DNA from: Deltaproteobacteria bacterium
GTDB taxonomy: Bacteria; Myxococcota; Kuafuiibacteriia; Kuafuiibacteriales; Kuafuiibacteriaceae
Assembly (NCBI GenBank): GCA_040218735.1
Contig: JAVJQW010000062.1
Location: 1 to 64,000, forward strand
DNA length: 64,000 bases
Direction: 5' to 3'
Every line of letters begins with the position of its first letter. Within the stretch, counting starts at the first letter, position 1. Of this stretch, positions 19,545 through 36,339 are shown one piece after another. The notes under the pieces are model-generated. The model did not search any database. It worked only from the letters and a program-made list of their open reading frames with translations, and was not told the DNA's origin. The position numbers and the translations under genes are program-made.

Positions 19545-20507
19545 ATGAACCGCGTTCGACACTTGGCTTGGCTTTTCGGGACGTCCCTCCTCCTGGGCGC
19601 TGCGCCGCCGGCGAAGTCGACGCCGAAGACGGTGCAGCCGCTGAAGCGCCCGCAGCTGTTGGGGCGGCTCCGCCCCGACCTGCGAAAGCGTACGGCGCGC
19701 AAGCGTGTCGTCCCGAAGGCGAAGCGGGAGGCGCTCCCGAAGTGTGAAGGGATGGCCGTGCTGCCGACGCACGATACGCGCCCCTTCGCGATCGGCGAGG
19801 AGCTGTCGTACGAGCTGACGGTGGCCGGTGCGTACCTCGGTCGCTTCGAGACGAAGGTCGGCAAGCCCCGCCGCGTGGGCGGGGAGACGGTCATCCCGCT
19901 GTTCGGACGCGCGCGGACGAACTCGTTCGTGTCGGCGATCCAGCCGTTCGCCGGGCGCTACATGGCGATGGTGAACCCCGAGACGCTGCGCCCAGTCGGG
20001 CTGCGCGTGGAGGCGAAGTTCGGGGACGACGATCGCTGGGAGAAGGTGAAGTTCTCGAAGGACCTCGAGAAGGCGACGGTCGACTACCGCCTCAAGGGAC
20101 ACGAGCGTCGGCGCGACTGGATGACGGACCACCAGCTGACGGACCTGCTGTCGATGCTCTACGCGGCGCGCTCCGTCCGCATCACGCCCGGCGCGACGGC
20201 GTGTCAGGACGTCTTCGGGGCGCGGCGGCTGTGGCGCATGGACGCGAAGGTCGAGGGGATCGAGAAGGTCGACACGCCGGTGGGGAAGAAGGACGCGTTC
20301 AAGGTCGCGACCAAGTTCCTCCGGAAGAACCACCGCACGCTGAGCCGGACGAACCGCCCGCGCGCGGAGGTCGACATCTACTTCGCTGCGGACGGGTCGC
20401 AGACCCCGCTGAAGTTCGTGGTGCGTAGCCAGGGCGTGGAGGCGACGGGCACGCTGGTGCGCTGGTCGCTCGAGGGCGGATCGAGCGAGGACACCTGGGG
20501 GATCTGA
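19545..20507 (+). CDS. DUF3108-like secreted protein
   Basis: Signal peptide; PFAIGEELSYE, DLLSMLYAAR, GIEKVDTPVGKKDAFKV, IYFAAD..TPLKF; TATACT and GGAGG upstream. Confidence 0.75.
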   Translation: MNRVRHLAWLFGTSLLLGAAPPAKSTPKTVQPLKRPQLLGRLRPDLRKRTARKRVVPKAKREALPKCEGMAVLPTHDTRPFAIGEELSYELTVAGAYLGRFETKVGKPRRVGGETVIPLFGRARTNSFVSAIQPFAGRYMAMVNPETLRPVGLRVEAKFGDDDRWEKVKFSKDLEKATVDYRLKGHERRRDWMTDHQLTDLLSMLYAARSVRITPGATACQDVFGARRLWRMDAKVEGIEKVDTPVGKKDAFKVATKFLRKNHRTLSRTNRPRAEVDIYFAADGSQTPLKFVVRSQGVEATGTLVRWSLEGGSSEDTWGI

Positions 20508-20652: not shown

Positions 20653-21825
20653 ATGTCTCGCACGGTCCGCACCGACGACGCCCAGCGCGCGCTCGCCCGC
20701 CTCATCCGCGACGATCTCGACGCCGCCTCTCCGAACAACGACCTCGTCTCCAAGGACGAAGCCACGGCGCTCGACCCGTTCGTCCGCCGCGCCGAGGGTG
20801 CGGTCCGCGACGGCAAGCCGCGCTACGGTCGCGTCACGAAGAACGAGGTCGTCGACCGCGCGATGACCGACGCGATGGCGGCGTGGAACGGCGTCAACCC
20901 GCGCTCGAAGCCACGGGACCACCGCACGCTCGCACAGAGCGAGATACGCGCGCTCGCCGACCGCGACCCGGAGCTCGGCGCGCTCACGCGACGTGCGTAC
21001 GACGTCGTGCGCGGCGGGGTGGATCGGCCGACGGCGGTGCGTGCTGCGATCGAGGCGCAGCCGGGGATCGGCGCGCTGCTACGGAGGACGAGCTCTTTCG
21101 GCACCCGCATCGACGCCCGCGAAGGCCAAGCAGGGCGTGCGGATCTCCCGGCGTCGGTGGTGTCGGCGTTCGACGCGCACTTCGTGACGGAGGCGACGGA
21201 CCGTGGCGCGGCGACGCTCAAGCGCTTCGCGCTCGGCGGCGGCGACGTCTTCGCGCTCTACACGACCAGCGACGGCGACGACGCGATCCTCGAGCTGTTC
21301 GACACCAACGGCGCCGCGCTCGCGTCCGCGCGGTTCTTCGGCGACCGGTTCCTCCGCTGGGACGAGCACTTCGGCGGCGGGCGCTTCTTGGGGGTCTTCG
21401 GGCGCTCGGACCACCCGCACGTGGACGGCTACTCGTCGGCCGACGAGCAGCGCGCCACCGGCCAGATCGTCCGGGCGGAGTGGCAGCCCGACGCGGTCGT
21501 CCGCGACATCGCGGTGGAGCGGGACGGCAGCACGATCACCGCGGTCCGGACTCGAACCGATCTGACCCCCGCGCAGGACGAGGTCTTCCGCGCCGTCATC
21601 GCCCTCGCCTATCAGCGCACCACGCGCATCGCCGGCCCGGCGACGGGCAACTTCGACATGGGCCAATTCGGACGCGTCCGCGTCGGCACGCACCACGACC
21701 CGGTCGGCGGACGCGACTTCATCGTCGGCGACTGGATCGACCACGACGACGGCTCGTACACGTTCTACTTCAACCGCGACGCACACGGCCGGCTGGGGAT
21801 CGAGCGCGAGCAGGTGAACGGCTGA
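20653..21825 (+). CDS. Hypothetical protein (no signal peptide)
   Basis: 390-aa ORF with genome-typical codon usage and protein-like composition; no recognisable enzymatic motif. Confidence 0.75.
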   Translation: MSRTVRTDDAQRALARLIRDDLDAASPNNDLVSKDEATALDPFVRRAEGAVRDGKPRYGRVTKNEVVDRAMTDAMAAWNGVNPRSKPRDHRTLAQSEIRALADRDPELGALTRRAYDVVRGGVDRPTAVRAAIEAQPGIGALLRRTSSFGTRIDAREGQAGRADLPASVVSAFDAHFVTEATDRGAATLKRFALGGGDVFALYTTSDGDDAILELFDTNGAALASARFFGDRFLRWDEHFGGGRFLGVFGRSDHPHVDGYSSADEQRATGQIVRAEWQPDAVVRDIAVERDGSTITAVRTRTDLTPAQDEVFRAVIALAYQRTTRIAGPATGNFDMGQFGRVRVGTHHDPVGGRDFIVGDWIDHDDGSYTFYFNRDAHGRLGIEREQVNG

Positions 21826-21839
21826 CCCCCGCGTTTGCT

Positions 21840-22388
21840 TCACCCGGTGCCGGTGTCCTCCGAGTCCGTGCGCCCCGACTTCCTTCGTTGCGCGCGGCGT
21901 CCGGCGGCGATCCCACCGATCCCGATGACCGATCCCACGAAGGCGCCCGCGAAGATGTCCGTCGGGTAGTGCACGCCGAGCTGCACGCGCGAGAAGGCCA
22001 CGGCGCTCGCAGCAGGTAGGTAGATGGCCCACCCGTACGGCACCGCGCGCGCCGCCGGGACGTAGAACGCAAACGCGACCGTCGCGTGGCCGGACGGGAA
22101 GCTCTTTCCGACGCCGCAGCTCGACACCTTCACGAGGCCGTCCAACGTTCGGCAGGGGCGCTCGCGGGCGAAGGTCGGCTTGAGGATCCGCGCGGTGACG
22201 ACATCGCCAACGCCCATCGACAGCGCGATGCTCGCGACCGCCATGAAGCGCCGCTTGTAGAGCAGGTACAGCGCGGTCGGGGTGCAGATGAGCACGACCA
22301 TCCACGGCGACGACGCGAAGTTGGCCCAGCCCGCGACCCAGGGATCGGACGACCACGCGTTGACGGCCCTGACGATCGCCTCGTCCAT
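21840..22388 (-). CDS. PAP2-family membrane phosphatase
   Basis: KPTFARERP, SFPSGHA, SRVQLGVHYPTD motifs; ATG 22388. Confidence 0.92.
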   Translation of the reverse strand: MDEAIVRAVNAWSSDPWVAGWANFASSPWMVVLICTPTALYLLYKRRFMAVASIALSMGVGDVVTARILKPTFARERPCRTLDGLVKVSSCGVGKSFPSGHATVAFAFYVPAARAVPYGWAIYLPAASAVAFSRVQLGVHYPTDIFAGAFVGSVIGIGGIAAGRRAQRRKSGRTDSEDTGTG

Positions 22389-22593
22389 CGCGCGGCGCGA
22401 CGGTCCTACGCCGTGCGCGCGAACACAAGCGCACCCGTCACCCGGCGTGACCGGTAACACGTACGACGCGGCCGCTCGCCGGCCGCGCGAGGGCAGGTGC
22501 ACGATGATCAAAAGCCATTACAATGTTCCCCGATTCGTGCTACCGCGCGCTGAACGCGGGCAATACCGCGTGGTTCGTCGCTCGAGAGGAGAT

Positions 22594-25500
22594 ATGCGTA
22601 TGCTCAGGCAGCGCCTGGCTTTCACCACCTACGTCTGCGGATTCACAGTGGCCACCGCCCTCGCCACCGGTTGCGCGCGCGACCTGACGCTCGAAGACCC
22701 GGTCAACCCGGCCGACGTCACGATCGCGCAGTTCGATCCCACCAACCCGATCCCCGTGCTTCAGTTGATCCCCGCGCCGACCGCCCTGGCGCAGATCCCC
22801 GGCACGAAGCTGATCAACAAGGCCGCCGTCGCGCCCGAGCCGTGTGAGCTCCCGACGATCGCGCAGTGCCTCGCGTTCGTGGACGGCTGGTCGACGACCA
22901 CCTACCCCACGCTCTACTTCTCCAAGGCGCCCGACCAGGCCTCGCTTCAGCAGGGCATCATCTGGTTGGAGGTCGGCGCGACGGGCATTCAGCCGGTCGA
23001 GTTCACCGCGGTGATCCGGGAGCGCGACGCGATCAACCCGGCGTGCATGAGCGGTGACAACGGGAGCAACCCGGCCCAGACCTATACGGCTGACGACGTC
23101 CCGGCCGGGGTGCAGGTCAACCTGATCCCGACCTCCCCGCTCAAGCCCGGCACGCAGTACCTGATGGCGCTCGTGAGCAACGAGGGCGGCGGTCTGCGCG
23201 GCCCCGACGGCGACCAGGTGTACCCGTCGGCGCTCTTCGCCATCCTCAACACGGACGACCCGCCGGTCGCGCAGGACGGCACGATCACCGACGGCCTCCT
23301 CCGCAGCCAGGCGCAGGGCGCCGCCATCGCGCGCCTGTACCCGAACACCTCGCCCGAAGAGCTCGACGCCGACCAGCAGGCCGCCGTCGCCGCCGCGGTC
23401 GCCGCGAGCGGCGAGACCCTCGTCGGCCTCTACGCCTTCATCTCGCAGGTGAGCTCGGCGTTCCTCGACGCGGGCCTGGTCATGGACCGCAACGACCTCG
23501 TGTTCGTGAACTCCTGGGACACCGGCGAAGCGGCTGCGGCGATCGAGTTCGACCCGCAGGCGGGCATCGTCCCGATCCCCAACACGCAGCTGCTCACGGT
23601 CGAAAACGAAAACACCCCCACGGGCCTGCAGGTCAGCTTCCCGCGCGACCCGTCGAACCCCACGCGTGACGCGCTCATCGGGGGCCTCAACACCCTCGAC
23701 GGCTTCGGGCTCAGCCGCCCCGTCATGACGGTCTCCGTGAACGCGGTCCTCGACGCGTCGACGCTCCAGGACAACATCGCGATGTACGCCGTGAACAGCG
23801 AAGGCAACGCGACGGGCCCGTCGGTGCCGCTCGCGTTCCAGACGACCACGACCACGACCGCGACGACGGCGAGCACGACGATCAACATCGTCGCCTTCGG
23901 CCCGCTCCCGCAGAGCACCGACTTCGCAGTGGTCCTCAAGCGCGGCATCATGGCCGCGGACGGCCGCGAGGTGCAGCGCAACTCGACGTTCAACCTCCTC
24001 GCCCTCGACGACAACCCGTTCGTCGACGAGAGCGGAGCCGTTCAGAACCCCGTCATCGAGCAGGCGCTCCAGTGCCAGCCCGTCCCCGTGACCGGGATGC
24101 TCGCCCAGGACCCCGAGGTGCGTGGCACCGCGGCGGCGCTCGAGACGCTCCTCAACCACGCCGGTTGGACCACGACGCTGACCGCGCTCGAAAACCACAC
24201 CGACCCGGCCGAGGCCGTGGCGCGTGAGGACATCATCATGGCGTGGGGGTACACGACCCAGACGCTCACCGGCGCGGTCGGCACCGCCAAGCAGCTCATC
24301 CAGAGCGGGACCTGGGACATGGCCGTCCCCGGCCCGAAGGCGCTCGGACCGCTCCCGCCCTCCCCGATCGTCGGCACCGCGAGCATCGCGGCGACGGTTC
24401 AGGTCGTCCCGCAGTTCTGCGTACCGATCTGCGAGGTCGGCACGATGGAGCCCGGCATCGACCGCGACGACTGCGTCACGCGCGACATGGAGGGCAACAT
24501 CACCTCGATCAACCCGGCGCTCCCGGGCAACCAGTTCTGCCAGCTCGCCGTGAACATCATCGCGGGCAACCTGAACAACGCGTCGCTGTACGCGGTGAAG
24601 AGCTACGAGCTGCGTGCCGGCAACCCGTACGTCGCGGGCACCTTCGACCCGGCGAAGTTCGCCGCGCCGGATGCGTCCACGCTCCTGGTCTGGGTCATCG
24701 AGCCGAACGGCACGCCGCCGGCCGAGGGTTGGCCGGTCGTGATGTTCCAGCACGGCATCGGGCAGTTCAAGGAGACCGGCTTCTACCTCGCGAACTCGAT
24801 GGCGAACCTCGGCATCGCGACGGTGCTGATGGACCTGCCGCTGCACGGCTCGCGTGCGTCGGACCTCGCGATGCTCGTCGACACCCCGCTCGGCCCGCAG
24901 GAGGTGCCCTGCACCGACGCGAACGGCATCCCGAACATCGATCCGGCGGACGTCATGTGTGACCCGGCGACCGGCATGTGCCAGGGCGGCTGCGACGGCG
25001 TGCGGGACTCGTCGGCGACGGGTTTCCTGTCGACGAACCTCTTCGGGACCCGCGACAACCTGCGCCAGGCGACGATCGACCAGCTCGCGCTGATCGACGC
25101 CATCCAGGAGGCCTCCATGACCGGCGGACCGCTCGAGCGCCTCGACGGCACGAGCATCGGCTACATCGGGCAGTCCCTCGGCGCGATCACCGGCGGTAAC
25201 CTCGCCGCGTACGCGGACGGCCTCGGCGCTTCGGTGCTGAACGTCGGCGGCGGTGACTGGGTGACGATCCTCGAGCAGACGGTGCCGCAGATCTCGGCGC
25301 CGCTCTTCGTCGGCCTGGCGAACGCCGGCGTCTGCACGCTCATCAACCCGGCGAACCCGGGCGAAGGCTGCGTGCGCAACGCCGCGTACCTGGAGTTCCT
25401 CAACACCCTCCGCTGGATTCTCGAGCCTGCGGATCCGGTGCCGCTGTCGCAGGCGGTCCCGGACGGCCTGGGTCTGGACAACGTCCTCATCCAGATGGCG

Positions 25501-25839
25501 ACCGACGATCCGGTGGTTCCGAACGCCGCGACGGCGCTCCTGGCGGCGTCCTACGGCCTGGCGGATCTCGACCTTCGGACGGGGACGGCGACGCCGACCT
25601 CCGACCGGTTCCAGATCTACGACTTCACCGCGCTCCCGCAGTCGCGGATCGGCAGCGGCTGCCACGGTTGGATCCTCCAGCCGACGTGCGGCGGCTTCGA
25701 CATGAACGGCGACCTCGACGTTGCGGACGCACTCTGCAACTCGATCGGCGCTCAGCTGCAGGCGGGTGAGTTCCTTCTCAACCAGATGTCGGTGGCGGAT
25801 CAGCGCCCCGCGACCGTGTCGGGCATTCCGTGCCCGTAG
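22594..25839 (+). CDS. Large surface lipoprotein lipase/phospholipase (Pla-1/Cef/VolA-like alpha/beta hydrolase) with duplicated N-terminal module
   Basis: GAGAGGAG RBS, lipobox LATGC, VMFQHGIG, MDLPLHGSR, TRDNLRQ..IDQL, nucleophile GQSLG (25168-25182), DDPVVPN and GCHGWIL. Confidence 0.85.
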   Translation: MRMLRQRLAFTTYVCGFTVATALATGCARDLTLEDPVNPADVTIAQFDPTNPIPVLQLIPAPTALAQIPGTKLINKAAVAPEPCELPTIAQCLAFVDGWSTTTYPTLYFSKAPDQASLQQGIIWLEVGATGIQPVEFTAVIRERDAINPACMSGDNGSNPAQTYTADDVPAGVQVNLIPTSPLKPGTQYLMALVSNEGGGLRGPDGDQVYPSALFAILNTDDPPVAQDGTITDGLLRSQAQGAAIARLYPNTSPEELDADQQAAVAAAVAASGETLVGLYAFISQVSSAFLDAGLVMDRNDLVFVNSWDTGEAAAAIEFDPQAGIVPIPNTQLLTVENENTPTGLQVSFPRDPSNPTRDALIGGLNTLDGFGLSRPVMTVSVNAVLDASTLQDNIAMYAVNSEGNATGPSVPLAFQTTTTTTATTASTTINIVAFGPLPQSTDFAVVLKRGIMAADGREVQRNSTFNLLALDDNPFVDESGAVQNPVIEQALQCQPVPVTGMLAQDPEVRGTAAALETLLNHAGWTTTLTALENHTDPAEAVAREDIIMAWGYTTQTLTGAVGTAKQLIQSGTWDMAVPGPKALGPLPPSPIVGTASIAATVQVVPQFCVPICEVGTMEPGIDRDDCVTRDMEGNITSINPALPGNQFCQLAVNIIAGNLNNASLYAVKSYELRAGNPYVAGTFDPAKFAAPDASTLLVWVIEPNGTPPAEGWPVVMFQHGIGQFKETGFYLANSMANLGIATVLMDLPLHGSRASDLAMLVDTPLGPQEVPCTDANGIPNIDPADVMCDPATGMCQGGCDGVRDSSATGFLSTNLFGTRDNLRQATIDQLALIDAIQEASMTGGPLERLDGTSIGYIGQSLGAITGGNLAAYADGLGASVLNVGGGDWVTILEQTVPQISAPLFVGLANAGVCTLINPANPGEGCVRNAAYLEFLNTLRWILEPADPVPLSQAVPDGLGLDNVLIQMATDDPVVPNAATALLAASYGLADLDLRTGTATPTSDRFQIYDFTALPQSRIGSGCHGWILQPTCGGFDMNGDLDVADALCNSIGAQLQAGEFLLNQMSVADQRPATVSGIPCP

Positions 25840-25866
25840 GTGGATGACAGGAAGGTGGAGCAACCG

Positions 25867-27165
25867 ATGTCCAACATGAAGAAGATGCCCTGGGCCGCGA
25901 CAATCGCGGCCACCCTTGTCGCGAGCCCCGCGTTCGGCGCGGGCTTTCAGGTCAACGAGCACTCGGCGCCCAACACCGGGCGCGCGAGCTCGGTGACCGC
26001 GACCGTCGACGACCCGTCCGCGATCTTCCACAACCCCGCCGGTCTCACGCAGACCGAGGGGACGGAGTTCCAGGGCGGCGTCACGTTCATCATCCCGCGC
26101 GGCACGTACACCGGGCCGGGCAACGATCCGAACGGTGAGGTCGTCTCGCAGAGCACCACGAGCCCCGTGGTTCCGGTGCCCAACGCGTACATCTCGCGCG
26201 CGCTGTCGTCGAAGGCGTACGTCGGGTTCGGCTTCTACGCGCCGTACGGCCTCGGAATCGCGTGGGCCAACCCCGACGACTTCATCGGCCGCACGGTGGT
26301 GCAGGAGCTGAGCCTCCGCTCGTTCTTCCTCACCCCGTCGATCGCGCTGAAGCTGTCGGACATGGTGAGCGTCGCGGTCGGCGTGTCGCTCGTCCCGGCG
26401 ACCGTCTACCTGAAGCGCGTGCTCGGCGCGACGGACAACGGCCAGACGCTGTTCCCGACGTCCCGGTACTCGCAAGAGGGCACGGTGGAGATCGCCGGTA
26501 GCGCCTTCGGCGTCGGCGCAAACGCGGGCGTTCAGCTCACCCTGATCGACAACCTGAAGATCGGCCTCGCGCTCCGCTCGGCCGTCGACCTGTCGTTCTC
26601 GGGTGACGCCGACTTCGAGCTCCCGCCGGAGGCGGCCCCGGAGATCCAGGCGAACTTCCCCGACCAGGGCGGCTCCGCCAACCTGACGCTTCCGCACTCG
26701 ATCTCGTTCGGGATCGGCTGGGTGCAGGACTCGCTGACGGTGGAGGCTTCGACGCAGGTGACGCTGTGGAACTCGTACGACGAGCTCCGCCTCAACTTCG
26801 AGACGGGTCGCCCCACGCCGTCCTCCGCGTCGCCGCGCGACTGGACGGTCGTGCCGATGTTCCGCCTCGGCGGCCAGTACATGCTGGACGACCTCGCGGT
26901 TCGGGCGGGCGTCGCGTACGACATCTCGCCCGCGCCGGACGAGACGGTCGACCCGACCCTCCCGGACAACGACCGTTTCATCTTCTCGGCGGGCGCCGGC
27001 TACGACTTCGGGTTCCTGCGCGCGGATGTCGCGTACATGGGCCTGTATGTCTTCGGTCGCGACGTCCCGGCGGGAACGAACCTCAACTTCGCGCGTCAGT
27101 CCGACAGCACGTACGAGGGTGGCTTCGTCCACGTCATCTCGACGTCGCTCGGGGTGAAGATCTAG
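25867..27165 (+). CDS. fadL: OmpP1/FadL-family long-chain fatty acid outer-membrane transporter
   Basis: Signal peptide, then AGFQVNEHSA..TGRA, DDPSAIFHNPAGL, APYGL, PTLPDNDR. Confidence 0.92.
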   Translation: MSNMKKMPWAATIAATLVASPAFGAGFQVNEHSAPNTGRASSVTATVDDPSAIFHNPAGLTQTEGTEFQGGVTFIIPRGTYTGPGNDPNGEVVSQSTTSPVVPVPNAYISRALSSKAYVGFGFYAPYGLGIAWANPDDFIGRTVVQELSLRSFFLTPSIALKLSDMVSVAVGVSLVPATVYLKRVLGATDNGQTLFPTSRYSQEGTVEIAGSAFGVGANAGVQLTLIDNLKIGLALRSAVDLSFSGDADFELPPEAAPEIQANFPDQGGSANLTLPHSISFGIGWVQDSLTVEASTQVTLWNSYDELRLNFETGRPTPSSASPRDWTVVPMFRLGGQYMLDDLAVRAGVAYDISPAPDETVDPTLPDNDRFIFSAGAGYDFGFLRADVAYMGLYVFGRDVPAGTNLNFARQSDSTYEGGFVHVISTSLGVKI

Positions 27166-27221
27166 CGCGATCGCCGCCACCGCTGCGGTGAAGTGACCTG
27201 GGCGCAGGAGGTCAACGAACC

Positions 27222-29210
27222 ATGGACAACCGTGACAACCAGAGGCTCATCGTTCGGATGGGCCTCCTCGCTCCCCTCCTCTTCTTCGCATGCAGTGGTG
27301 ACGACGGCGACGACGATGCTCCGCCGCCGCCGCCGCCGCCCGTCACGAACCTGAAGATCGACGCTTCGGATCCGTGCACCGCCGACGTCCCGACGCCGAC
27401 GGACCTGTTCACGAACGACGACGGCACCACGGAGCAAGGCGACTGCCCCCTCCCCTCGGATCCGCTGGAGGCCGCGATGGCCGACGCGTTCCGAAACATG
27501 GGCGCAGCGACCGACGCCGAGATCCTGATCCCGGTGAACGGTTCGCTCGACCCGCTGTCGCTGTCGTCGACGACGACGTTTGCGCTGACCGGCTCCAACA
27601 CGGGCGGCCCGCCGCCGGTGGTGATGATCGCGCTGACGGGCAGCGCGACGGCCGCGAGCGGCTGGGAGGTCGTGGCGGCGGACGTCCGCTACGTCGAGCC
27701 GAACATCACGATCCGACCGCGCGCGACGCTCGCCGAGGCCCAGTACCACGTCGTCGTCACGACGAACGCGATGCGGGACAACGAGGGCATGAACGCACGC
27801 GTGCAGGTCAGGCCGATCTTCGCGCTGCTCACGGGCACGGAGGCCATCACGGCGTCGTCGCTCGAAGACCTCGACGCGGCGACCGCGGAGCGGCTCGAGC
27901 GCGAGCGCCAGCGGCTACAGCCCGCGTTGGAGATCCTCGAAGCGGGCTCGCCGCCGATTCCGCGCGACAGCATCACGTCGATTCAGGGCTTCACGACCGA
28001 CCCGGGCTACGGGCGGTTCCAGCGGCTCGTCGAGCTGTATTACGACGCGCTGGACGCCGGCACCTACGCGACGGGCACGACCCACGCCACGGTGCCCCGC
28101 GAGGACGTCTTCCTCGGCAATCCGAACGACTACCCGAACGTCGCCGAGGTGCACTACGGCACGGTGACCGCGCCGCGCCTGCTCGGCGACGACGGGCGCA
28201 TCCGCCCCAACTGGCATCTCAACGCCGAGACGATCGAGATCCCGTTCTCGTTCACGGTGCCGACGGGCGAGGACCGCTACCCCGTGCTGCTGTTCACGCC
28301 CGGCTACGGCCGCGGACGCATCGACGTCCGGAGCATCGCGCAGATCGCCTCGGAGACGGGCGCGGCCGGCGTGATGGCGCTCGAGCTGCGCTGCCACGGC
28401 AACCGCTCGCCGGAGCTCGATGGCATCTGCGGCGAGAACCGCTCCGAGGCCGAGGTCGACGCCCTGCTCGACGCGCAGCCCAACAACGGCAACATGCAGA
28501 TCCAGGGCGCCGACGGCATCCCGGACGACAGCGGCCAGGGTTACTTCCCCGGCGACGCCGTGGCCCTACGTGACTCGCAGATGGCGGCGGCGATCGAGCT
28601 GCTCCACGTCATCCGCACGTTGCGGAACCCGTCGAACTTCGACGGGCTGCAGCCGAACGCGGGGCAGATCCACCTCATCGCCCACGGCCAGACGGCGCCA
28701 GCCGCGGTGCTCGCGATCGCCGAGACGGAGTACCCGACGACCAACCTGACGATGTCGATGCCGGCGGGCGGCGGGGACTACAAGAGCCTCGTCCTCGACG
28801 GCCCGAACGCGCTGACGGACGCGTGGGTTGCGTCGCTCCCGCACGGCCTCCTCGAGGCCCAGGGCAGCGCGTACTTCGACTTCGCGAACGACACGCTGTT
28901 CCGTGCAATCGATCTCTCCGTCGCCGGTCCGCGCGCCGCGGACCGCCTCCGCAACGGCCAGACCTTCCGGCGAGGCCTGCTGTCGCACGGGACGGTCCCC
29001 ACGGCCGTGCCGGTCGTCGCGCGTGACGCGCTGGTCGACGCGCTCGGGCTCCCGTCGAACCGCGTGAGCCAGCACGCGCCGCAGTGCGATGACTTCTTCC
29101 TGTTCCCGTGTCCGTTCGGCGACAACCCGTTGCGGCAGGAGGAGTCGATCCGCCAGATGGTGGTGTTCGTGAACTCCGGCGGTAACACGGTGACCACGCC
29201 GTCGCCGTGA
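27222..29210 (+). CDS. Lipoprotein paralog of the upstream lipase, predicted catalytically inactive
   Basis: Lipobox FFAC; collinear motifs LFTPGYG, ALELRCHGNR, DGIPDDSGQGYF..LRDSQ; AHGQT in place of GQSLG and QCDDFFLFP in place of GCHGWILQP. Confidence 0.8.
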   Translation: MDNRDNQRLIVRMGLLAPLLFFACSGDDGDDDAPPPPPPPVTNLKIDASDPCTADVPTPTDLFTNDDGTTEQGDCPLPSDPLEAAMADAFRNMGAATDAEILIPVNGSLDPLSLSSTTTFALTGSNTGGPPPVVMIALTGSATAASGWEVVAADVRYVEPNITIRPRATLAEAQYHVVVTTNAMRDNEGMNARVQVRPIFALLTGTEAITASSLEDLDAATAERLERERQRLQPALEILEAGSPPIPRDSITSIQGFTTDPGYGRFQRLVELYYDALDAGTYATGTTHATVPREDVFLGNPNDYPNVAEVHYGTVTAPRLLGDDGRIRPNWHLNAETIEIPFSFTVPTGEDRYPVLLFTPGYGRGRIDVRSIAQIASETGAAGVMALELRCHGNRSPELDGICGENRSEAEVDALLDAQPNNGNMQIQGADGIPDDSGQGYFPGDAVALRDSQMAAAIELLHVIRTLRNPSNFDGLQPNAGQIHLIAHGQTAPAAVLAIAETEYPTTNLTMSMPAGGGDYKSLVLDGPNALTDAWVASLPHGLLEAQGSAYFDFANDTLFRAIDLSVAGPRAADRLRNGQTFRRGLLSHGTVPTAVPVVARDALVDALGLPSNRVSQHAPQCDDFFLFPCPFGDNPLRQEESIRQMVVFVNSGGNTVTTPSP

Positions 29211-29824
29211 CCGTCCGCCCCCTCCTCGTCGCGTTGACGCTGTCGCTCGTCGCCTGTAGCGGCGACGACGACGACAGCACACCCCTCCCGATGGACGGCA
29301 ACGTCATCGTCGGCATGGACCGCGACGGCGGTCCGCGGGACGCCGGGCCCCCGCGCGACGCCGGTCCGCGACCCGACGCCGGGTTTAGGGACGGCGGCAA
29401 CCGCGACGGCGGGGAACGCGACGGCGGACCCGCTCGCGACGGCGGACCCGCCGACGCCGGTGACGTCTGCAACGTCATGCCCACCGCCACGCTGACGGCC
29501 GAACAGGCGCTTACGGAAGCATCGATGCGCGACGGGACGATCGTCGAGGTCGTCGGGACCGCGACGCGCACGCCGTACGCGTGCACGGACATCCCCTGTC
29601 CGAAGGAGAACCCGTGCTGCAACACGTGTTCGGCGGACATCTCCGTCGAAGGGGTGCTGCCGCTCGCCGCCGACGCCTGCTTCGGACCGCGCGTCGGCTG
29701 CGCGGGCACGGAGTGCGCGCAGACCTGCCAACCCGCGCTGCTCGGGCTGCCGAATCGCTTCGTCGGGCGTATCGTAGACGGGATGCCGCCCCGCCTCGAC
29801 CTGTACCGCGTGACCACCCCGTGA
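29207..29824 (+). CDS. Small Cys-rich lipoprotein with RDGG/RDAG linker repeats
   Basis: Lipobox LVAC, CTDIPCPKENPCCNTC motif; GTGA overlaps at both ends. Confidence 0.85.
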   Translation: MTVRPLLVALTLSLVACSGDDDDSTPLPMDGNVIVGMDRDGGPRDAGPPRDAGPRPDAGFRDGGNRDGGERDGGPARDGGPADAGDVCNVMPTATLTAEQALTEASMRDGTIVEVVGTATRTPYACTDIPCPKENPCCNTCSADISVEGVLPLAADACFGPRVGCAGTECAQTCQPALLGLPNRFVGRIVDGMPPRLDLYRVTTP

Positions 29825-32800
29825 GGCGGACGCTCGCTGCGATCGCCTGCGTGGGGTTGGTGGCGTGTGAGTCACTCGAGCCCCGCGTCCCCGCCGACCG
29901 TCCGACGATCCTCATCGACGCGCCGATCGACGGCGACGAGGTGGAGATCAACGCGACGTTCTCGCTGACCGGTGTCGTGCGTGCGCCCGCGGGTGGGACG
30001 CTCCGGGACGCGCGCATCGTGTTGTCCGGCGCCGCGAACGAGGAACGCACGGTCCCGCTGTCCGGGCGGAACGCCGAGCTGAACGAGGAGCTCACGGTCG
30101 CGCGCGATCGCTTCGCGGGCGTCGACGGGCGCCCGATCGATCTCGTGGTCGTCGCGACCGCGATCGTGGGGACGCAGATCGTCGACAGCGAACCGGTGGG
30201 GCGCACGCTCACGCTCGTGGACCGCACGCCACCTCAGGTCTCGCTGCGACTCACCCCCGGCCTCGGCCGCGACGGGGACTTCGACGAGCGTTACGCCGCG
30301 GGCATGCCCTTCGTGCTCGAGGTCGACGCGGAAGACCGCATCGGCGGCGTGCACCGCATCCGCCTCGAAGCCCCCGCCCACCTCGGCGGTGCGCGTGAGG
30401 TGACGTTCAGCGGCGAGCCGGTCGTGTCGACCGCCTTCAGCTTCGAGCCGGCCGCGCGCGACGACATCACGCTGTCGGTCTTCGTCGACGACGTAGCGCA
30501 GCGCCCCAACTCAACAGGCCAAGCGGTGCGCGTGCAGGTCGGCGAGGGCCCGCTCGACACCGAGCCCCCGCAGGTGGAGCTCGTTCGCCCCCACGTCCTC
30601 GCGTGCGGGCGCACCTCGACCGTCGCGCTCGTCGCGCGCGACTCGGGCGTGGGCGTCGACCGGGTCCTGTTCACCGCGCCCCAGTCGGAGGCGGTCTACT
30701 TCGCGCCGTCGGCGCGCGCGACGTTCGCCGTCACCGCGACGGTCGTCGCGCCGCGCTCGGGGACGATCGAGCTGTCGGCGTCCGCCGTCGACGCCGTGGG
30801 CAACACCAGCTCGGCGACGACGGCGCGGTACACGATCGCCGACACACTCCCGCCGAGCCTGGACCGCGCCGACGTCCTCGCGGCCGCCATCGCGCCCGGT
30901 GAAGACCTCGACGTCGCGCTCACGGCGATGGACGCGTGCACCGACCTCGACGTCTTCGAGATCGCCTTCAACGACGCGCGCGGTGTCCAGCGCACCGGCA
31001 CCGTCCCGCTCGGCGCGCCCTCCGTGGACGCGACGGTGTTCGTCCCCGTGCCGCCCGACCTGTGCGCGCTGGAGCCGATCGCCCTGTCGCCGCGGGTGCG
31101 CGACGCGACGGGGCTCGTCACGACGGGCTTCAGCACCGTGCTCCCCGGCGAGGACCGAACGCGGCCAACGATTCAGGTGAACACGCTGGTGCCGAGCGGT
31201 GGCCTGGAGCCCGGTCAGATCCTCTCGGCCGACGTCGTGCTCTTCGATCCCCAGTCGGGCGTCCGCACCGCGACGATCACCGTGCGCGGGCAGGACCTCG
31301 GTGTCGCGAACCCGCTGTTCGTGCAGGTCGTCGACTTCGCCGTCGCGAACTGCGACGACGTCATGCCGCAGGTCGCGGCGGTGCGAAACCTCATCCCGGC
31401 CGACATTCCATTCAATGGACCCACGGCCGCGCTCATCATCGACGTCGTCGCCGAGGATGGCGCGGGGCTCGTGAACACCGCGCAGGCGTCGGTGCCCCTC
31501 ACCTCCTCGCAGCCCCCCGAGGTGCGTTTCCTCGCGCCCCCCGCCGGCCTCGCGTACGCACCCGGCGCGAGTGAGACGGTCGAGGTGTTCGTGGCCGACG
31601 CGGGCCACCCGGTCGACACGCTGAGCCTCTCCGTGCGCGGGCCGGCGACGCTGCAAGGTGCGGCGAGCTCGACGGTGGCCGTGCTCGCGCGCTCCGCGAC
31701 CGTGGCGTTCACGCTCACCGTCGACGCCAACGCCCCCGCCGACGCCGACGTCGAGCTCATCGCCACGGCCTACGACGGCGCGACGCCGCCCAACGTCGCG
31801 CAAGCGCGCCGCGCGCTGCGGACCTGCGGCAGCGCATCGATCGCGAGTGTGTCCCCTGCGCTCGGCCCGGTCGCGGGCGACCAGATCGTCACGCTCGTCG
31901 GCGACGGCTTCGGCCCACAGATGACCGTGGCGATCGGCGCGTCCTCGCTCGTGGACGTCACCGTCGCGAGCGCCACCGTCGCGACGGCGCGGATCCCCGC
32001 GGGCACCTACCTGGCCGGCACGAACGACGTCACCGTCGCGTGTGACGGCGCGGCGACCTCGGCGACGCTCGCGGACGGATACCGGTTCGTCGCACCCCCG
32101 GTCGTCACGTTGATTCAACCGGAGCCCGGCCTCGTCGTCGCGCCCGGCGCGGACCTGCACGTCGCGATGTCGGCGCGCGCCGACGGCGTTCAGCTCGCGC
32201 TGCTCGAGCTGGCGGGACCCGCGTCGGTGCAGAAGGCACTGAGCGCCCCGTTCGACGTGTTCGACGCGCAGCTCCCAGCGCCGCAGAGCCCCGGGACCGT
32301 GACGATCACGGGATCCGCCACCGACGACCTCGGGCAGACCTCGATCGCGCAGCGCCTCGTCTCGGTGGAGGTGCCGCAACCGGTGAGCCTCGAGCTCCTC
32401 ACCTCCTCGTCGACGGTGGCGACCGGCGCGACGGTCGGCGTACACGTGTTGGTCACGCTGACGGACGGGACCGTCGTGGACCGAACTCCGCAGGCCTCGG
32501 TGACCGTGACCTCGACCGCCGCCTCTGTCGTCGACTCGAGCCGATTGGTTACGGTGTCGCCCGGCGAGGTCACCATCAACGCGACCCTCGGAGCGCTCGC
32601 GACCTCGTCATCGATCGTCGTCGTCGACGACGCCCTCGAGTTCGTGCACCCGCCGCTGTTCATGTCATTCCCGGCCGGGGCGTCGGCCGAGGTCGAGGTG
32701 CACCGATTCAGCCTGGGCAATCGGACCGATGTCACCTCGCAGGTCACGCTGAGCTCCGACGACCCGGCGGTGGTCGACGTCGTTCAGGGCCTCCTGGTCG

Positions 32801-33756
32801 CGACGGGCGTCGGCGACGCCACGATCACCGCTGCGCTCTCGTCGACGATGACCGACACCCTCCACGTTCGCGTACGACGCGACCTCGATGTGGAGAGCGG
32901 CGAGGTCTTCGCGCTCCCGAACAATCAGGCCTTCGCTTCGGGTCGGATCGATGGCCGCGTCGAGGCCCACTGGACCTCCACTGGCGTGACCGCGTTCCGC
33001 TCGAACGCTACGGGCAGCGGCGTCCTCGTGATCAACGGAGCGTTTGTGGCGCACGGGCGCCCCGGTGGCCCCGCCGACGGCGGGCGCGGCGGCTTCGGCG
33101 GCGGCGGCGGGGGAGCCCGCAGCGGTTCTCCGGGCGGAGTCGGCGGCGACGGCGTACCCCCGGGTGATTCCACGGCCTCGAACCCCGCACCCATGTCGCC
33201 GGCCGGGTCCGGCGGCGGGTTCGGCACCGGCGGCCAAGGGGCGCGCGTCGAGGCCACCAGCGCGGGCGCGGGCGGCGGTGCACTCGGCCGAGGCGGCGAC
33301 GGCGGAGGAATTGTCGTCGCGTTCGGCGGCGCCATGTCCACGGTCGTTGGCTCCGGCGGGGGGGGTGGCGGCCACGGCGCGGGTGGCGGCGGCGCGGGCT
33401 CGTCCGTGACCTTCACGTGGAGCCGCGTCGTGCTCGACGGTGTACTCGACTTGCGCGGGGCACCGGGGGGAAGCGCCAACAGCGGTACCCCGGGTGGCGG
33501 CGGCGCCGGAGGCTTCGCGCGCTTCTGGAACGAGCTCGAGGGCAGCGGTGAGGTGATCGTCGCCGGGGGCCCAGGAGGATCTGGCAGCATCAGCGGCGGT
33601 GGCGGCGGGGCCGCCGGACGGATGGTGCTGCTCTTGGGGACACCCGACAGCGCCGCGCACCTCGTACGCGTCCACTATCGCGGAGGTCGCGCGGGTGAAG
33701 GGCCCCTCCCGGGCGAAGCCGGCGCGGCGGGCGGAACCTATCGATCCAGCTTTTGA
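29821..33756 (+). CDS. Giant surface lipoprotein: tandem Ig-like domains, IPT/TIG, Big_2-like repeats, C-terminal glycine-rich domain
   Basis: GTG 29821, lipobox LVAC, repeated D.TPP.V Ig boundaries, SVSPALGPVAGDQIVTLVGDGF (IPT), DVTSQVTLSSDDPAVVDV (Big_2-like), GGGGAGG-rich C-terminus. Confidence 0.85.
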   Translation: MRRTLAAIACVGLVACESLEPRVPADRPTILIDAPIDGDEVEINATFSLTGVVRAPAGGTLRDARIVLSGAANEERTVPLSGRNAELNEELTVARDRFAGVDGRPIDLVVVATAIVGTQIVDSEPVGRTLTLVDRTPPQVSLRLTPGLGRDGDFDERYAAGMPFVLEVDAEDRIGGVHRIRLEAPAHLGGAREVTFSGEPVVSTAFSFEPAARDDITLSVFVDDVAQRPNSTGQAVRVQVGEGPLDTEPPQVELVRPHVLACGRTSTVALVARDSGVGVDRVLFTAPQSEAVYFAPSARATFAVTATVVAPRSGTIELSASAVDAVGNTSSATTARYTIADTLPPSLDRADVLAAAIAPGEDLDVALTAMDACTDLDVFEIAFNDARGVQRTGTVPLGAPSVDATVFVPVPPDLCALEPIALSPRVRDATGLVTTGFSTVLPGEDRTRPTIQVNTLVPSGGLEPGQILSADVVLFDPQSGVRTATITVRGQDLGVANPLFVQVVDFAVANCDDVMPQVAAVRNLIPADIPFNGPTAALIIDVVAEDGAGLVNTAQASVPLTSSQPPEVRFLAPPAGLAYAPGASETVEVFVADAGHPVDTLSLSVRGPATLQGAASSTVAVLARSATVAFTLTVDANAPADADVELIATAYDGATPPNVAQARRALRTCGSASIASVSPALGPVAGDQIVTLVGDGFGPQMTVAIGASSLVDVTVASATVATARIPAGTYLAGTNDVTVACDGAATSATLADGYRFVAPPVVTLIQPEPGLVVAPGADLHVAMSARADGVQLALLELAGPASVQKALSAPFDVFDAQLPAPQSPGTVTITGSATDDLGQTSIAQRLVSVEVPQPVSLELLTSSSTVATGATVGVHVLVTLTDGTVVDRTPQASVTVTSTAASVVDSSRLVTVSPGEVTINATLGALATSSSIVVVDDALEFVHPPLFMSFPAGASAEVEVHRFSLGNRTDVTSQVTLSSDDPAVVDVVQGLLVATGVGDATITAALSSTMTDTLHVRVRRDLDVESGEVFALPNNQAFASGRIDGRVEAHWTSTGVTAFRSNATGSGVLVINGAFVAHGRPGGPADGGRGGFGGGGGGARSGSPGGVGGDGVPPGDSTASNPAPMSPAGSGGGFGTGGQGARVEATSAGAGGGALGRGGDGGGIVVAFGGAMSTVVGSGGGGGGHGAGGGGAGSSVTFTWSRVVLDGVLDLRGAPGGSANSGTPGGGGAGGFARFWNELEGSGEVIVAGGPGGSGSISGGGGGAAGRMVLLLGTPDSAAHLVRVHYRGGRAGEGPLPGEAGAAGGTYRSSF

Positions 33757-33765
33757 GGCGGGCGG

Positions 33766-36339
33766 CTACTTCGCTGCGTAACCCGTGTGCTCGATGAGCA
33801 CCGTCTCCAGCTCCGCCTCGGTCAGCTTCGCGGAGTGTTTCCACACGACCTCGCCCTGCGGCGAGATGAGCACCGTGTAGGGGAGCGAACCGTCGAAGGC
33901 GAGCTTCGGGTCCACCTCGGCCTCCGTGTAGTCGTCCGAGATGCGCAAGGCCGAGGTCGTGGGGACCTGGATCGATTGCATGAACGTCTTCGCGGCGTCG
34001 AGGCCGTCGGCGTCCTCGACCGCGACGACCGTGAAGCGCTGCCCGCGGGCCTCGAACTTGTTGCCGACGCGCGCCATGAAGTCCTTCAGCTCCAGCTTGC
34101 AGGGCGCGCACCACGTGGCCCAGAGGTTCACGAGCGTCCACTTGCCGGGCGCGATGGCGCAGGTCGCGGCGCCGTCCGAGAGGCGCTCCGCGACGAGCTT
34201 CACCTTACCCGAGCAGACGTCCGTGCCGGCCTTCGCGAGCTTCGGCTCCGACGCGGCGGGTGATGCAGCTTCGTTCTTGGCGATCGAATCCAGGAGGAAC
34301 TGCCGGAACTCCTCCGGGTCGTTCGTCGAGCTGGCGAAGGTCCCGAGCACAGTCCCGTCCGCGCGCTCCACCGAGTAGTGCGGCAGCGCCGCCGTCTGGA
34401 AGCGTTCCACCTGCGACAGGCGGTTTCGCTTGTGCTCGTCGCGCCGGCCGTCCGTGTACAGCTCCACCAGCACCATCGTGTTCAGCACACTCGCGATCTC
34501 GGGCCGCGGGAAGACGCCGCCCTCCATGTACCGGCAGTTGGTGCAGTTGAAGCCGGTGTAGTTCACGAAGACGAGCTTGCCCTGCGCCTTCGCGAGGCCG
34601 CGCCCCTCGTCGAGGTCGTGCACCCACGCGAGGGTCGGCTGCGCCGCCGCGCCCCCGCCGCCCCCGCGCGCGACGGCCACCTGGTTCGCGGGCGGCAGCC
34701 ACCCGTCGATCCACCCGCCGAACGTCCGCGCGTTGAACAGCCCCACCGCGAGGTAGATCGACAGCGTGAACATCGCCGCGCCCGAGAGGACCTGCGGCAC
34801 CGACACGCCGGCGTCGGGGCTCGACACGGCCTCGTGGCCGATGCGGATCTTGCCGATGAGGAACAGGCCGCACAGCACGAACAGCGGGATCCAGATCGAG
34901 AGCACGAGATCGCGCGTGAGGATCTCCGTCTCCCAGACGAGATCCGCGTTGCTGAGGAACTTCGTCGCCGCCGCCATCTCCAGGAAGCCAAGCGTCACGC
35001 GCGTCGCCGAGAGCCAGCCGCCCGCCTTGCCCTGCAGCCGCTTCGCGGCCTGCGGGAACATCGCGAGGAAGAAGAAGGGCAGCGCAAACGCCGTCGAGAA
35101 CGAGAGCATCCCGACCGTCGGCCAGACCCACTCACCCTGCGCCGCTTGCACGAGCACGAGCCCGACGAAGCCGACCGTGCACGTGAAGAACACCGTCGTC
35201 GCGGTGAGCGCGGCGATCGCGACGACGAGGTAGTCCCCGATCCCGCCGCCCTTCTTCTGGGCCCCGACGCCGAGCGCCGCGGCGCGGCCGAACTTCATCT
35301 CGAGTTTGTTGACGCCCGACACCAAGAACGCCGGCGGGCGAATCTCGAACAGCCCGAGCAGGTTCAGCGCGAAGAACACCAGCACCGCGCCGAGCACGAG
35401 GTTGAACACCGGGTGACCCGCGAAGTCGCTCACCCCGGTGACGCCGAAGAGGATGGAGATGAGGACACCCGCCGCCGTGTACGCGAGCACCATCGTCAGC
35501 GCGTAGACGCCCGCGAGCCGCGCGCCGCGCGCGAAGTTCTCCTCCGAGTACTTGGAGAAGAACGAGATCGTGAGCGGAATGGCCGGGAAGACACACGGCG
35601 TCGCGAGCGCCGCGAGCCCGAAGCCGAACGCGGCGAGCAGGAACGCGAGCAGGCCGCCCTCCCCCGGCGACGCCTTCTTGGGCTGTTGCGTCGCGACCTT
35701 CGCGGGCTCGGACGGCGGCGCACGCACCACCATCGCCGCGACGGTGAGCTTGCCCCCCGTCAGGGTCGGCGCCGCGGCGCCGGTCGCGAAGTCCGCGACA
35801 GTGAACGCGAGCGGCACCCGCTTGTTCTGCGGGATGCAGCGGCCTTCGTTGCAGATCTGGCCGTCAATCAGGACGTGCGTGCTGGCTTCACCGGAGGCGG
35901 CGTCGTTCGCGACCTGGAAGTGACGCGACAGCGCGACCTTCCCCTCCTTGTACTGCGCGCGGTCGCCCTCGAAGCCGCGGTCGTAGACCATCACCGGCGT
36001 GTCGCCGTGCCAGTCGCCGACGAGCGTGCCCGGCGCGCCCTCCTCGATCGACAGCTCGAGCGGCTGCGGCCCTTCCCCGGGATCGAGGCTCCACAGGTGC
36101 CACCCCTCGGGGACGTCGATCGTCAGATCGAGACGCCCCGTCTCCCCCGGGCCCAGCGCCGAGGGCTCGACCTTCGCGTCGACCGAGATGCTGGGATCCG
36201 CCGCCCACGCCGAAGGCGCCGCGAGCAGTCCCAGGAGCGCAAGAATGGAGGCTCGACCACACACCGCGCTCCACGATCGCCCTTTGGGCCATCGGGAGCA
36301 ACCGTCGAGACGACCCTGGCTGACCCTGACACTGGACAT
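33766..36339 (-). CDS. dsbD: DsbD-type thiol:disulfide interchange protein with extra C-terminal TlpA-like thioredoxin
   Basis: N-domain (PEGWHLWS...QICNEGRCIP), TM domain (TPCVFP...FTCT), thioredoxin NCTNCRYME, second thioredoxin NLWATWCAPCK. The true start may lie further downstream. Confidence 0.87.
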   Translation of the reverse strand: MSSVRVSQGRLDGCSRWPKGRSWSAVCGRASILALLGLLAAPSAWAADPSISVDAKVEPSALGPGETGRLDLTIDVPEGWHLWSLDPGEGPQPLELSIEEGAPGTLVGDWHGDTPVMVYDRGFEGDRAQYKEGKVALSRHFQVANDAASGEASTHVLIDGQICNEGRCIPQNKRVPLAFTVADFATGAAAPTLTGGKLTVAAMVVRAPPSEPAKVATQQPKKASPGEGGLLAFLLAAFGFGLAALATPCVFPAIPLTISFFSKYSEENFARGARLAGVYALTMVLAYTAAGVLISILFGVTGVSDFAGHPVFNLVLGAVLVFFALNLLGLFEIRPPAFLVSGVNKLEMKFGRAAALGVGAQKKGGGIGDYLVVAIAALTATTVFFTCTVGFVGLVLVQAAQGEWVWPTVGMLSFSTAFALPFFFLAMFPQAAKRLQGKAGGWLSATRVTLGFLEMAAATKFLSNADLVWETEILTRDLVLSIWIPLFVLCGLFLIGKIRIGHEAVSSPDAGVSVPQVLSGAAMFTLSIYLAVGLFNARTFGGWIDGWLPPANQVAVARGGGGGAAAQPTLAWVHDLDEGRGLAKAQGKLVFVNYTGFNCTNCRYMEGGVFPRPEIASVLNTMVLVELYTDGRRDEHKRNRLSQVERFQTAALPHYSVERADGTVLGTFASSTNDPEEFRQFLLDSIAKNEAASPAASEPKLAKAGTDVCSGKVKLVAERLSDGAATCAIAPGKWTLVNLWATWCAPCKLELKDFMARVGNKFEARGQRFTVVAVEDADGLDAAKTFMQSIQVPTTSALRISDDYTEAEVDPKLAFDGSLPYTVLISPQGEVVWKHSAKLTEAELETVLIEHTGYAAK

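Follow-up and report, generated by a model that had tools for sequence, protein, structure and literature searches.

The window analysed here is a stretch of 64,000 nucleotides (nt), positions 1 to 64,000 of contig JAVJQW010000062.1 (GenBank assembly GCA_040218735.1) of an uncultured marine deltaproteobacterium assigned to the Myxococcota. It carries a cluster of five genes, here called A to E, in which a predicted lipid-anchored lipase is followed by an outer-membrane channel of the FadL family and by three more lipoproteins. Judging from the sequences and their comparison across genomes, this locus is probably an elaborated version, particular to its lineage, of a fatty-acid scavenging pair like VolA-FadL, a pair often found in Myxococcota. 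The lipase-FadL core is already known; its additions, the pseudo-lipase C and the cysteine-rich lipoprotein D, appear to be new. The five genes are located as follows.

22594-25839, + strand: gene A, predicted lipoprotein serine lipase/phospholipase, 1081 amino acids (open reading frame listing and translation)
25867-27165, + strand: gene B, FadL-family 14-strand outer-membrane channel, 432 amino acids (open reading frame listing and translation, Pfam)
27222-29210, + strand: gene C, predicted non-catalytic paralog of A (pseudo-lipase), lipoprotein, 662 amino acids
29207-29824, + strand: gene D, lipoprotein with an acidic tether and a predicted C-terminal 10-cysteine OB-fold domain, 205 amino acids
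29821-33756, + strand: gene E, lipoprotein with Ig-like/TIG repeats and a glycine-rich C-terminal region, 1311 amino acids

The preliminary description of this region had proposed five co-directional genes with short gaps or GTGA overlaps, four of them encoding lipoproteins and one a FadL barrel, and the open reading frame listing and the translations agree with it. The A-B gap is 27 nt when B starts at the ATG at 25867 (with the in-frame GTG at 25840 as its start, B would directly adjoin the stop codon of A), the B-C gap is 56 nt, and GTGA overlaps are found at both the C/D and the D/E junctions. A Shine-Dalgarno-like run, GAGAGGAG, lies just 5' of the ATG of gene A at 22594. The G+C content of the region is about 70% and its composition is without a break. 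Signal peptides ending in a lipobox cysteine were found at the N-termini of A (..LATG-C, residues 23-27), C (..LFFA-C), D (..SLVA-C) and E (..GLVA-C), and B has a type-I signal peptide. Among the orthologs whose N-termini were printed, the lipobox was kept in 14/14 for A and was canonical in 7/8 for C (one has an arginine at position -1) and in 17/18 for D.

Gene A matched the NCBIfam model TIGR03502 (VolA/Pla-1 family phospholipase) with an E value of 3.3e-38, the best stretch being residues 707-875 on model positions 440-572. Its catalytic triad, made of S861 (in the motif GQSLG, G859-Q-S861-L-G863), D972 and H1024, was intact and invariant in 8/8 orthologs, as was the oxyanion pair H720-G721, which is consistent with the active lipase that had been proposed. 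The lipid-anchor cysteine, Cys27, is followed by 18 further cysteines, as expected of an exported protein. No Pfam match to gene A was obtained at E values up to 0.01 (a weak Big_5 match appeared only at E up to 10), and the sequence search of solved structures gave no match below an E value of 0.1. From its sequence, gene A thus apparently encodes a competent, lipid-anchored serine lipase or phospholipase distantly related to VolA/Pla-1. Relatives were mapped by tblastn with seven window proteins in the 20 species-level genomes of the window's order, all of which belong to one family (the window's own genome is G000). Full-length orthologs of A (profile positions about 1-1067) were found solely in this family, in 18 of the 19 other genomes. 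The ortholog of G012 (L031, 10338-13509) is split into two frames, which could be due to decay or to an assembly error.

Gene B matched the Pfam family Toluene_X/FadL (FadL/OMPP1/TodX, PF03349) with an E value of 2.8e-64 and 217.6 bits, against a gathering cutoff of 29.7, over residues 16-401 (model positions 2-388 of 421). The match to the E. coli FadL equivalog NF007988 had an E value of 1.2e-38 and, with 132.9 bits, was below the cutoff of 585. The predicted cut of the signal peptide (..PAFG-AGFQVNEHS) leaves AGFQVNEHS as the mature N-terminus. The NPA motif of the N-terminal hatch is a hallmark of FadL, and its residues were invariant in the orthologs compared (N56 and A58 in 19/19, P57 in 16/16). 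BamG- and PorV-type models matched gene B only weakly, and its sequence looks like that of a transporting FadL rather than of a BamG/PorV-type relative.

The pairing of genes A and B extends well beyond the family of the window. Lipase-domain relatives in proteins of about 1000 amino acids were found in 182 of the 301 genomes sampled in the phylum. In the 11 best-scoring loci outside the window's family (L059-L069; 10 from the family labelled f9 and 1 from f21), a FadL gene lay immediately downstream of the VolA-like lipase and on the same strand in 11/11, and an f14 locus (L073) also has the lipase and then FadL, which makes 12/12 of the loci examined outside the family; these loci are the best matches and not a random sample. 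In the four of them that were extended, none of the genes after FadL is related to C, D or E. The lipase-then-FadL pairing is therefore a widespread, general feature of Myxococcota. The only studied lipase-FadL case of this kind is VolA-FadL of Vibrio cholerae, and the analogy drawn with it in the preliminary description stands. In the part of the report drawn on here (Pride et al. 2013, PMC3656444), the Vibrio fadL and volA genes are described as adjacent, co-transcribed and functionally coupled, VolA as a surface-exposed lipoprotein lysophospholipase, and growth on lysophosphatidylcholine as requiring FadL.

The window's genome also has a second lipid locus, on the - strand of contig 39 (L075:3729-9472). 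It encodes, in order, a VolA-like lipase (28% identity to A, in the hydrolase domain), a FadL of 393 amino acids and a lipoprotein of 702 amino acids. The latter carries a GISQG motif and an acidic tether, and its N-terminal part weakly matched TIGR03502 (E value of 2.4e-4) and PF12262 (E value of 0.0015, below cutoff). Its comparison with gene C by hhalign gave a probability of 10%, which does not establish homology.

Gene C had been proposed to be a dead paralog of the lipase, and the profile comparison is in line with this. BLASTP aligned C with A at 23% identity over the hydrolase core (E value of 4e-5), and hhalign of the A orthologs against 19 C-family sequences gave a probability of 99.3% and an E value of 2.7e-20. 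This alignment spans residues 320-1059 of A and 40-665 of C, so that C corresponds to A minus its first 320 residues or so. Gene C had no match in Pfam, NCBIfam or the PDB sequences. Its AlphaFold2 model had a predicted local distance difference test (pLDDT) score of 85.7 and a predicted template modelling score of 0.85, and Foldseek matched the C-terminal half to alpha/beta hydrolases (acetyl xylan esterases and lipases) with E values from 7e-8 to 3e-6. The column aligned to the nucleophile S861, at the strand-helix elbow in the model, is glycine in 18/19 C-family sequences and alanine in 1/19, the column aligned to H1024 is aspartate in 16, serine in 1, glutamate in 1 and a gap in 1 of the 19, and the position of the oxyanion histidine is proline in 18/19. 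As 36 columns are nevertheless invariant across the 19 sequences, C would be a conserved pseudo-enzyme. Taken with the model, the alignments indicate that C is a true paralog of A with a predicted alpha/beta-hydrolase fold and that it is non-catalytic. A word-indexed search of 5.8 billion proteins recovered 12 relatives of C among the 8000 best candidates scored; they are unnamed or called 'hypothetical', and all come from Myxococcota or from Deltaproteobacteria metagenome-assembled genomes.

Gene D is the cysteine-rich lipoprotein that had been noted in this locus. After the lipid anchor, residues 18-85 or so form a disordered acidic tether rich in aspartate, glycine and proline, with an AlphaFold2 pLDDT below 50 and a conserved DGNVIVG-type motif, and residues 88-205 form a beta-rich domain with a pLDDT above 90. 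The domain has 10 cysteines, of which 7 never vary and the other 3 hardly vary among 30 sequences; they presumably form the five predicted disulfides in the exported protein. No Pfam or NCBIfam match to D was obtained. The Foldseek matches of the domain were weak (E values of about 0.02) and all of OB-fold type, and the 50 matches listed by VIA-align, a search independent of Foldseek, were OB folds in 50/50, with Z scores of 5.8-8.2, a range that is middling by this tool; they include the N-terminal OB domain of MCM with its zinc-ribbon insert, the anticodon-binding domains of AsnRS and AspRS, RPA and CcmE. The best match to the D domain in the ESM Atlas reached 0.83, with OB-fold families at about 0.8, and all of these are below 0.9 and serve as leads only. 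On the predicted model, the domain is of the OB-fold class, and this class is all that we claim. An exhaustive HMMER search with the D-domain profile gave 452 representative clusters at E values no higher than 0.001, of which 128 remained at a threshold of 1e-10 and 25 at 1e-30; the architecture of D is found in about 75. Since 19/20 of the sampled relatives lacked any Pfam match over the domain (the remaining one had a weak match to tRNA_anti-like (OB) PF12869, E value of 9e-4), the domain represents an uncurated family.

Full-length orthologs of D were found in 18 of the 19 other genomes of the order. A D-type cysteine-rich OB domain also occurs in a lipoprotein of 634 amino acids in G000 (contig 42, L039:3802-5706, - strand) together with CUB, Kazal and proprotein-convertase P domains, and in similar open reading frames of about 630-680 amino acids in G004, G006, G008, G010 and G011. 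The domain thus appears to be an extracytoplasmic module that is not unique to lipid loci. Genome G017 has two paralogs of D, and stand-alone D-family genes without lipase or FadL in the fetched flanks were found at 7965-8579 of L038 (G017, contig 1) and at 8254-8904 of L036 (G015, contig 333). A profile of the signal peptide and tether of D (window positions 29207-29460) matched 57 other open reading frames in G000 and 51 in G001, so that long acidic disordered tethers seem to be a common lipoprotein design in this lineage.

The arrangements of the cluster in the 20 genomes were the following.

A-B-C-D contiguous and co-directional: G000, G004, G011, G002, G006, G005, G019 and G014 (8 genomes)
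A-B-C-D, with the contig starting inside A: G001 (1 genome)
C-D, with the contig starting inside C and A on another contig: G016 (1 genome)
A-B-D without C, with B-D gaps of 23 to about 150 nt: G018, G012, G003, G008, G010 and G017 (6 genomes)
B-D: G013 (1 genome)
A-B then convergent DsbD, no D: G007 and G015, the latter with a D-like gene elsewhere (2 genomes)
Neither A nor a full D found: G009, 91% complete (1 genome)

The block keeps its gene order and strand in relatives with protein identities of only 26-87%, which argues that the arrangement is not due to chance. Gene D lies directly after B or C in 17/20 genomes and in 11/12 genera, at identities as low as 26%. Gene C is present in 10/20 genomes (genus g5 is split, with three genomes having it and two lacking it), and in the 8 loci measured C and D overlap at their start and stop codons or are within 1-58 nt. 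Loci L014 and L016 keep A-B-C-D although neither the PAP2 nor the DsbD gene found beside the window's cluster flanks them. Gene E follows D in only 4/20 genomes (G000, G001, G011 and, in pieces, G006), which represent three genera; the D/E overlap is limited to the window's genus, and elsewhere several hundred nt separate the two genes. The preliminary description had named synteny of C, D and E with the lipase-FadL pair as a test; it holds for D and in half of the genomes for C, and it largely fails for E. This unequal linkage means that the conserved unit is A-B-(C)-D, with E as an accessory of doubtful membership; the five genes do not form one conserved unit, and the pair of lipase and FadL is in itself frequent throughout the phylum.

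The tight coupling of C and D, their strict placement behind FadL and the conservation of fold and cysteines argue that both are selected accessories of the pair. Several observations weigh against this and against the relation to VolA. The TIGR03502 score of gene A, 131.4 bits, is far under the curated cutoff of 383.9, and neither A nor C matched PF12262 (Lipase_bact_N) even at E values up to 10, so that A is a distant relative of VolA/Pla-1 and not a member of the family, and the PF12262-like lipase of the preliminary description is not supported. The lipase precedes fadL here, and the order is reversed in Vibrio as given in the cited part of PMC3656444. The copy of C in G006 (L017, 9257-11189) is interrupted by an in-frame TAG and shifts its frame, which could be due to decay or to an assembly error. 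Genes C, D and E occur in only one family of uncultured Myxococcota, so that shared ancestry may account for part of their linkage. The downstream DsbD and AI-2E transporter genes are also conserved neighbours. Finally, none of C, D and E is obligatory, given the six A-B-D genomes without C, the 16 genomes without E, and G007 and G015, which have A-B without D (a D-like gene being elsewhere in G015).

Some of these points are shared by a rival explanation, in which only A and B form a functional unit and the products of C, D and E are envelope lipoproteins of no relation to it, kept in place by shared ancestry in one family. Besides the restriction to this family and the absence of C from 10/20 genomes, it draws on the DsbD gene, which is conserved beside the cluster without an evident lipid role, and on the D-type domain of the unrelated CUB/Kazal/P-domain lipoprotein. 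However, C is a paralog of A and hence no unrelated gene, the position of D directly behind FadL or C holds in loci with differing flanks, and C and D overlap or are closely spaced in the loci measured. We consider this explanation unlikely, although it deserves consideration, and retain the elaboration of a lipase-FadL pair as the preferred reading.

In an effector-immunity explanation, A would be a phospholipase aimed at other bacteria, and the lipoprotein D (or C) would guard the producer as its immunity or inhibitor protein. Tle-Tli pairs use periplasmic lipoprotein immunity proteins; D is small, cysteine-rich, lipid-anchored and encoded downstream of a lipase, and a dead paralog could serve as a decoy. 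However, FadL is located between the lipase and D, the lipase and FadL occur without D in 12/12 of the loci examined outside the family as well as in G007 and G015, and no secretion-system or toxin-delivery genes were found among the neighbours scanned. This explanation is very improbable.

Gene E encodes the giant Ig-like and glycine-rich lipoprotein that had been described as an adhesin. Its Ig-like domains matched Pfam TIG (E value of 4.1e-7), Big_7 (E value of 0.0014) and an OmpL47-type model (E value of 6.2e-7), and its C-terminal region of 271 residues contains 34% glycine. Six full-length relatives were found in the index of 5.8 billion proteins, the other matches sharing the TIG domain only. 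The glycine-rich tail is kept in relatives from other genera, and the window's own genome has no paralog of it beyond the gene itself. Like gene C, gene E had no match at all to solved structures by sequence. Fibrillar adhesins have a stalk of repeated Ig-like domains and an identifiable adhesive tip domain. Gene E has the TIG, Big_7 and OmpL47-type Ig-like domains; its glycine-rich tail matched no family and no solved structure and its best look-alike in the ESM Atlas, among phage-rich unnamed clusters, reached 0.88, which is below 0.9 and a lead only.

The genes that flank the cluster are the following.

21840-22511, - strand: PAP2-family lipid phosphatase, divergent upstream neighbour (Pfam PAP2, E value of 5.5e-19)
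33766-36339, - strand: DsbD-like thiol:disulfide reductase, 857 amino acids, convergent downstream neighbour (Pfam)
36376-37617, + strand: AI-2E family transporter gene, after the DsbD-like gene
19545-20507, + strand: DUF3108 protein, upstream of PAP2 (E value of 4.5e-21)
20653-21825, + strand: open reading frame of 390 amino acids without a Pfam match, upstream of PAP2

The DsbD-like protein matched the Pfam models DsbD_TM, DsbD_N, Thioredoxin_7 and AhpC-TSA, its extra Thioredoxin_7 and AhpC/TlpA-like (thioredoxin-fold) domains being at the C-terminus. Its gene is convergent after the cluster in 12/20 genomes, and AI-2E-like open reading frames adjoin it in several relatives, as judged by eye from their N-termini. 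In the D-less genomes G007 and G015 it stands directly after FadL, which indicates that its adjacency is local synteny and no evidence of a tie to the cysteine-rich proteins. DsbD as a functional partner of these proteins was set aside, as it holds its position where D is absent, and its membership in the system is unproven. Scans for promoters and terminators were uninformative at 70% G+C: no sigma-70-like site was found (0.5 expected), and there were 8 terminator-like sites (4.0 ± 1.9 expected), of which only one, weak and within B, was on the + strand. Judged by shared 31-mers only, this DNA occurs in habitats of aquaculture, sponge or biofloc, with shares of 0.53-0.70 in aquaculture and sponge metagenome runs (3 runs from 2 studies, a possible source run being excluded).

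The divergent PAP2 gene had been noted before and was found as described; its product also gave weak NCBIfam matches to undecaprenyl-diphosphatase and PgpB. It lies upstream of A in 8/20 genomes, divergent in 6 and co-directional in 2, and its membership in the system is likewise unproven. Its presence would suit a role of the locus in outer-membrane lipid homeostasis, in which A would clear the cell's own mislocalised or damaged phospholipids, FadL would recycle the fatty acids and PAP2 would act on lipid phosphates. The E. coli proteins PldA, FadL and FadD are linked to outer-membrane lipid signalling, and the near-universality of the lipase-FadL pair in families such as f9 (90/115 genomes) and f14 (35/40) is as for a housekeeping function. 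However, the flanks fetched for the other genomes contain no PAP2 gene, its orientation is inconsistent, the second lipase-FadL-lipase locus of the window's genome fits the scavenging of varied substrates better, and the Vibrio precedent is nutritional in the cited part of PMC3656444. The homeostasis explanation has in our view a low probability, and we return to fatty-acid scavenging.

In the scavenging mechanism, A would be held in the outer membrane, facing outwards, and would free fatty acids from extracellular acyl lipids, and B would take the released fatty acids across this membrane. Gene D would be the add-on that defines the family's version and would assist the lipase and FadL by binding a ligand or a partner. 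Gene C, a second copy of A found in half of the family and now devoid of the nucleophile and of both the catalytic and the oxyanion histidine, would be a non-catalytic lipid-binding or lipase-partner subunit. These binding roles are suggested by the hydrolase scaffold of C, which is without the chemistry, and by the small binding-type fold of D on a flexible tether. Gene E would be a genus-level accessory with a weak functional tie to the rest. The analysis itself shows the gene structures, the assignment to families, the catalytic residues, the folds and the synteny; we infer the surface exposure, the substrates, the co-transcription and any physical complex, as well as the roles of C, D and E.

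Apart from the two-gene case of VolA-FadL, little is understood of the gathering of hydrophobic substrates and their delivery to FadL channels. In this lineage two additional lipoproteins have become fixed beside FadL, a conserved pseudo-lipase and a cysteine-rich protein with a predicted OB fold of an undescribed family, and C and D are therefore candidates for substrate-capture or partner subunits. Since the lipase-FadL pairing is general in Myxococcota, the question is testable in cultured relatives. A bolder possibility, which we regard as rather improbable, is that A-B-C-D, with E in some genera, make up a FadL-centred surface lipid machine in which C and D capture acyl lipids or membranes and pass them to A and then to FadL. 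Such a machine, if it exists, would be the lipid counterpart of the barrel-plus-lipoprotein utilisomes of Bacteroidota, possibly acting on prey or particle membranes. The alignment of FadL from D-containing, D-less and distant loci showed one insertion that every member of the family has, G007 and G015 without D among them, and no D-specific loop. The prediction of a complex between FadL (residues 24-432) and mature D (residues 18-205) gave a score of 0.01 against a mark of 0.32, without controls, and is no evidence either way. The Sus-like, prey-contact machine of the preliminary description is speculation.

None of the papers listed by the literature search described a dead lipase paralog or an OB-fold lipoprotein in a cluster of lipase and FadL, and comparison was made with systems that share some of these parts. 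The D domain superposes on YgiW, of the YgiW/BOF family, with a Z score of 7.9 and a root-mean-square deviation of 2.9 A over 79 residues, and its insert sits like the zinc ribbon of MCM OB domains. Unlike YgiW/BOF and the tRNA_anti-like lipoproteins, D has no sequence-family match, and it has a 10-cysteine pattern and a long acidic tether. With the SusCD utilisomes and BamG-BamH of Bacteroidota, the locus shares an outer-membrane barrel encoded alongside several lipoproteins. BamG, a barrel of the FadL family, binds the surface lipoprotein BamH through extracellular loops according to the part of PMC12578637 cited here. Unlike SusCD, the seven proteins scanned with Pfam and NCBIfam include no TonB-dependent transporter and no SusD-type lipoprotein, so that the likeness to a Sus system is an analogy only; the phylum also differs, and no part of a canonical transporting FadL is missing from B. 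The same part of PMC12578637 gives a surface-export rule for Bacteroidota of at least two acidic residues within the six after the lipid cysteine, which C (CSGDDGD), D (CSGDDDD) and E (CESLEP) would fit, while A (CARDLTL) has only one acidic residue. As a rule for Bacteroidota, it gives a hint only for Myxococcota.

The closest systems are the lipase-FadL pairs themselves. The two-gene loci of f9, f14 and f21 agree with A-B in order and strand, FadL coming after a lipoprotein lipase of about 1000 amino acids; their lipases are 24-32% identical to A, mainly in the hydrolase domain, and no C, D or E follows. Like VolA (VCA0863) and FadL (VCA0862) of V. cholerae, as given in the cited part of PMC3656444, genes A and B place a predicted lipid-anchored GxSxG serine lipase beside a co-directional FadL with a short gap. 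The Vibrio operon of that source consists of two genes, whereas in the family of the window the pair is followed by genes for a dead paralog and an OB-fold lipoprotein and, in some cases, for a giant lipoprotein with Ig repeats. The likely logic is common to both, with fatty acids released outside the cell and then taken up through FadL.

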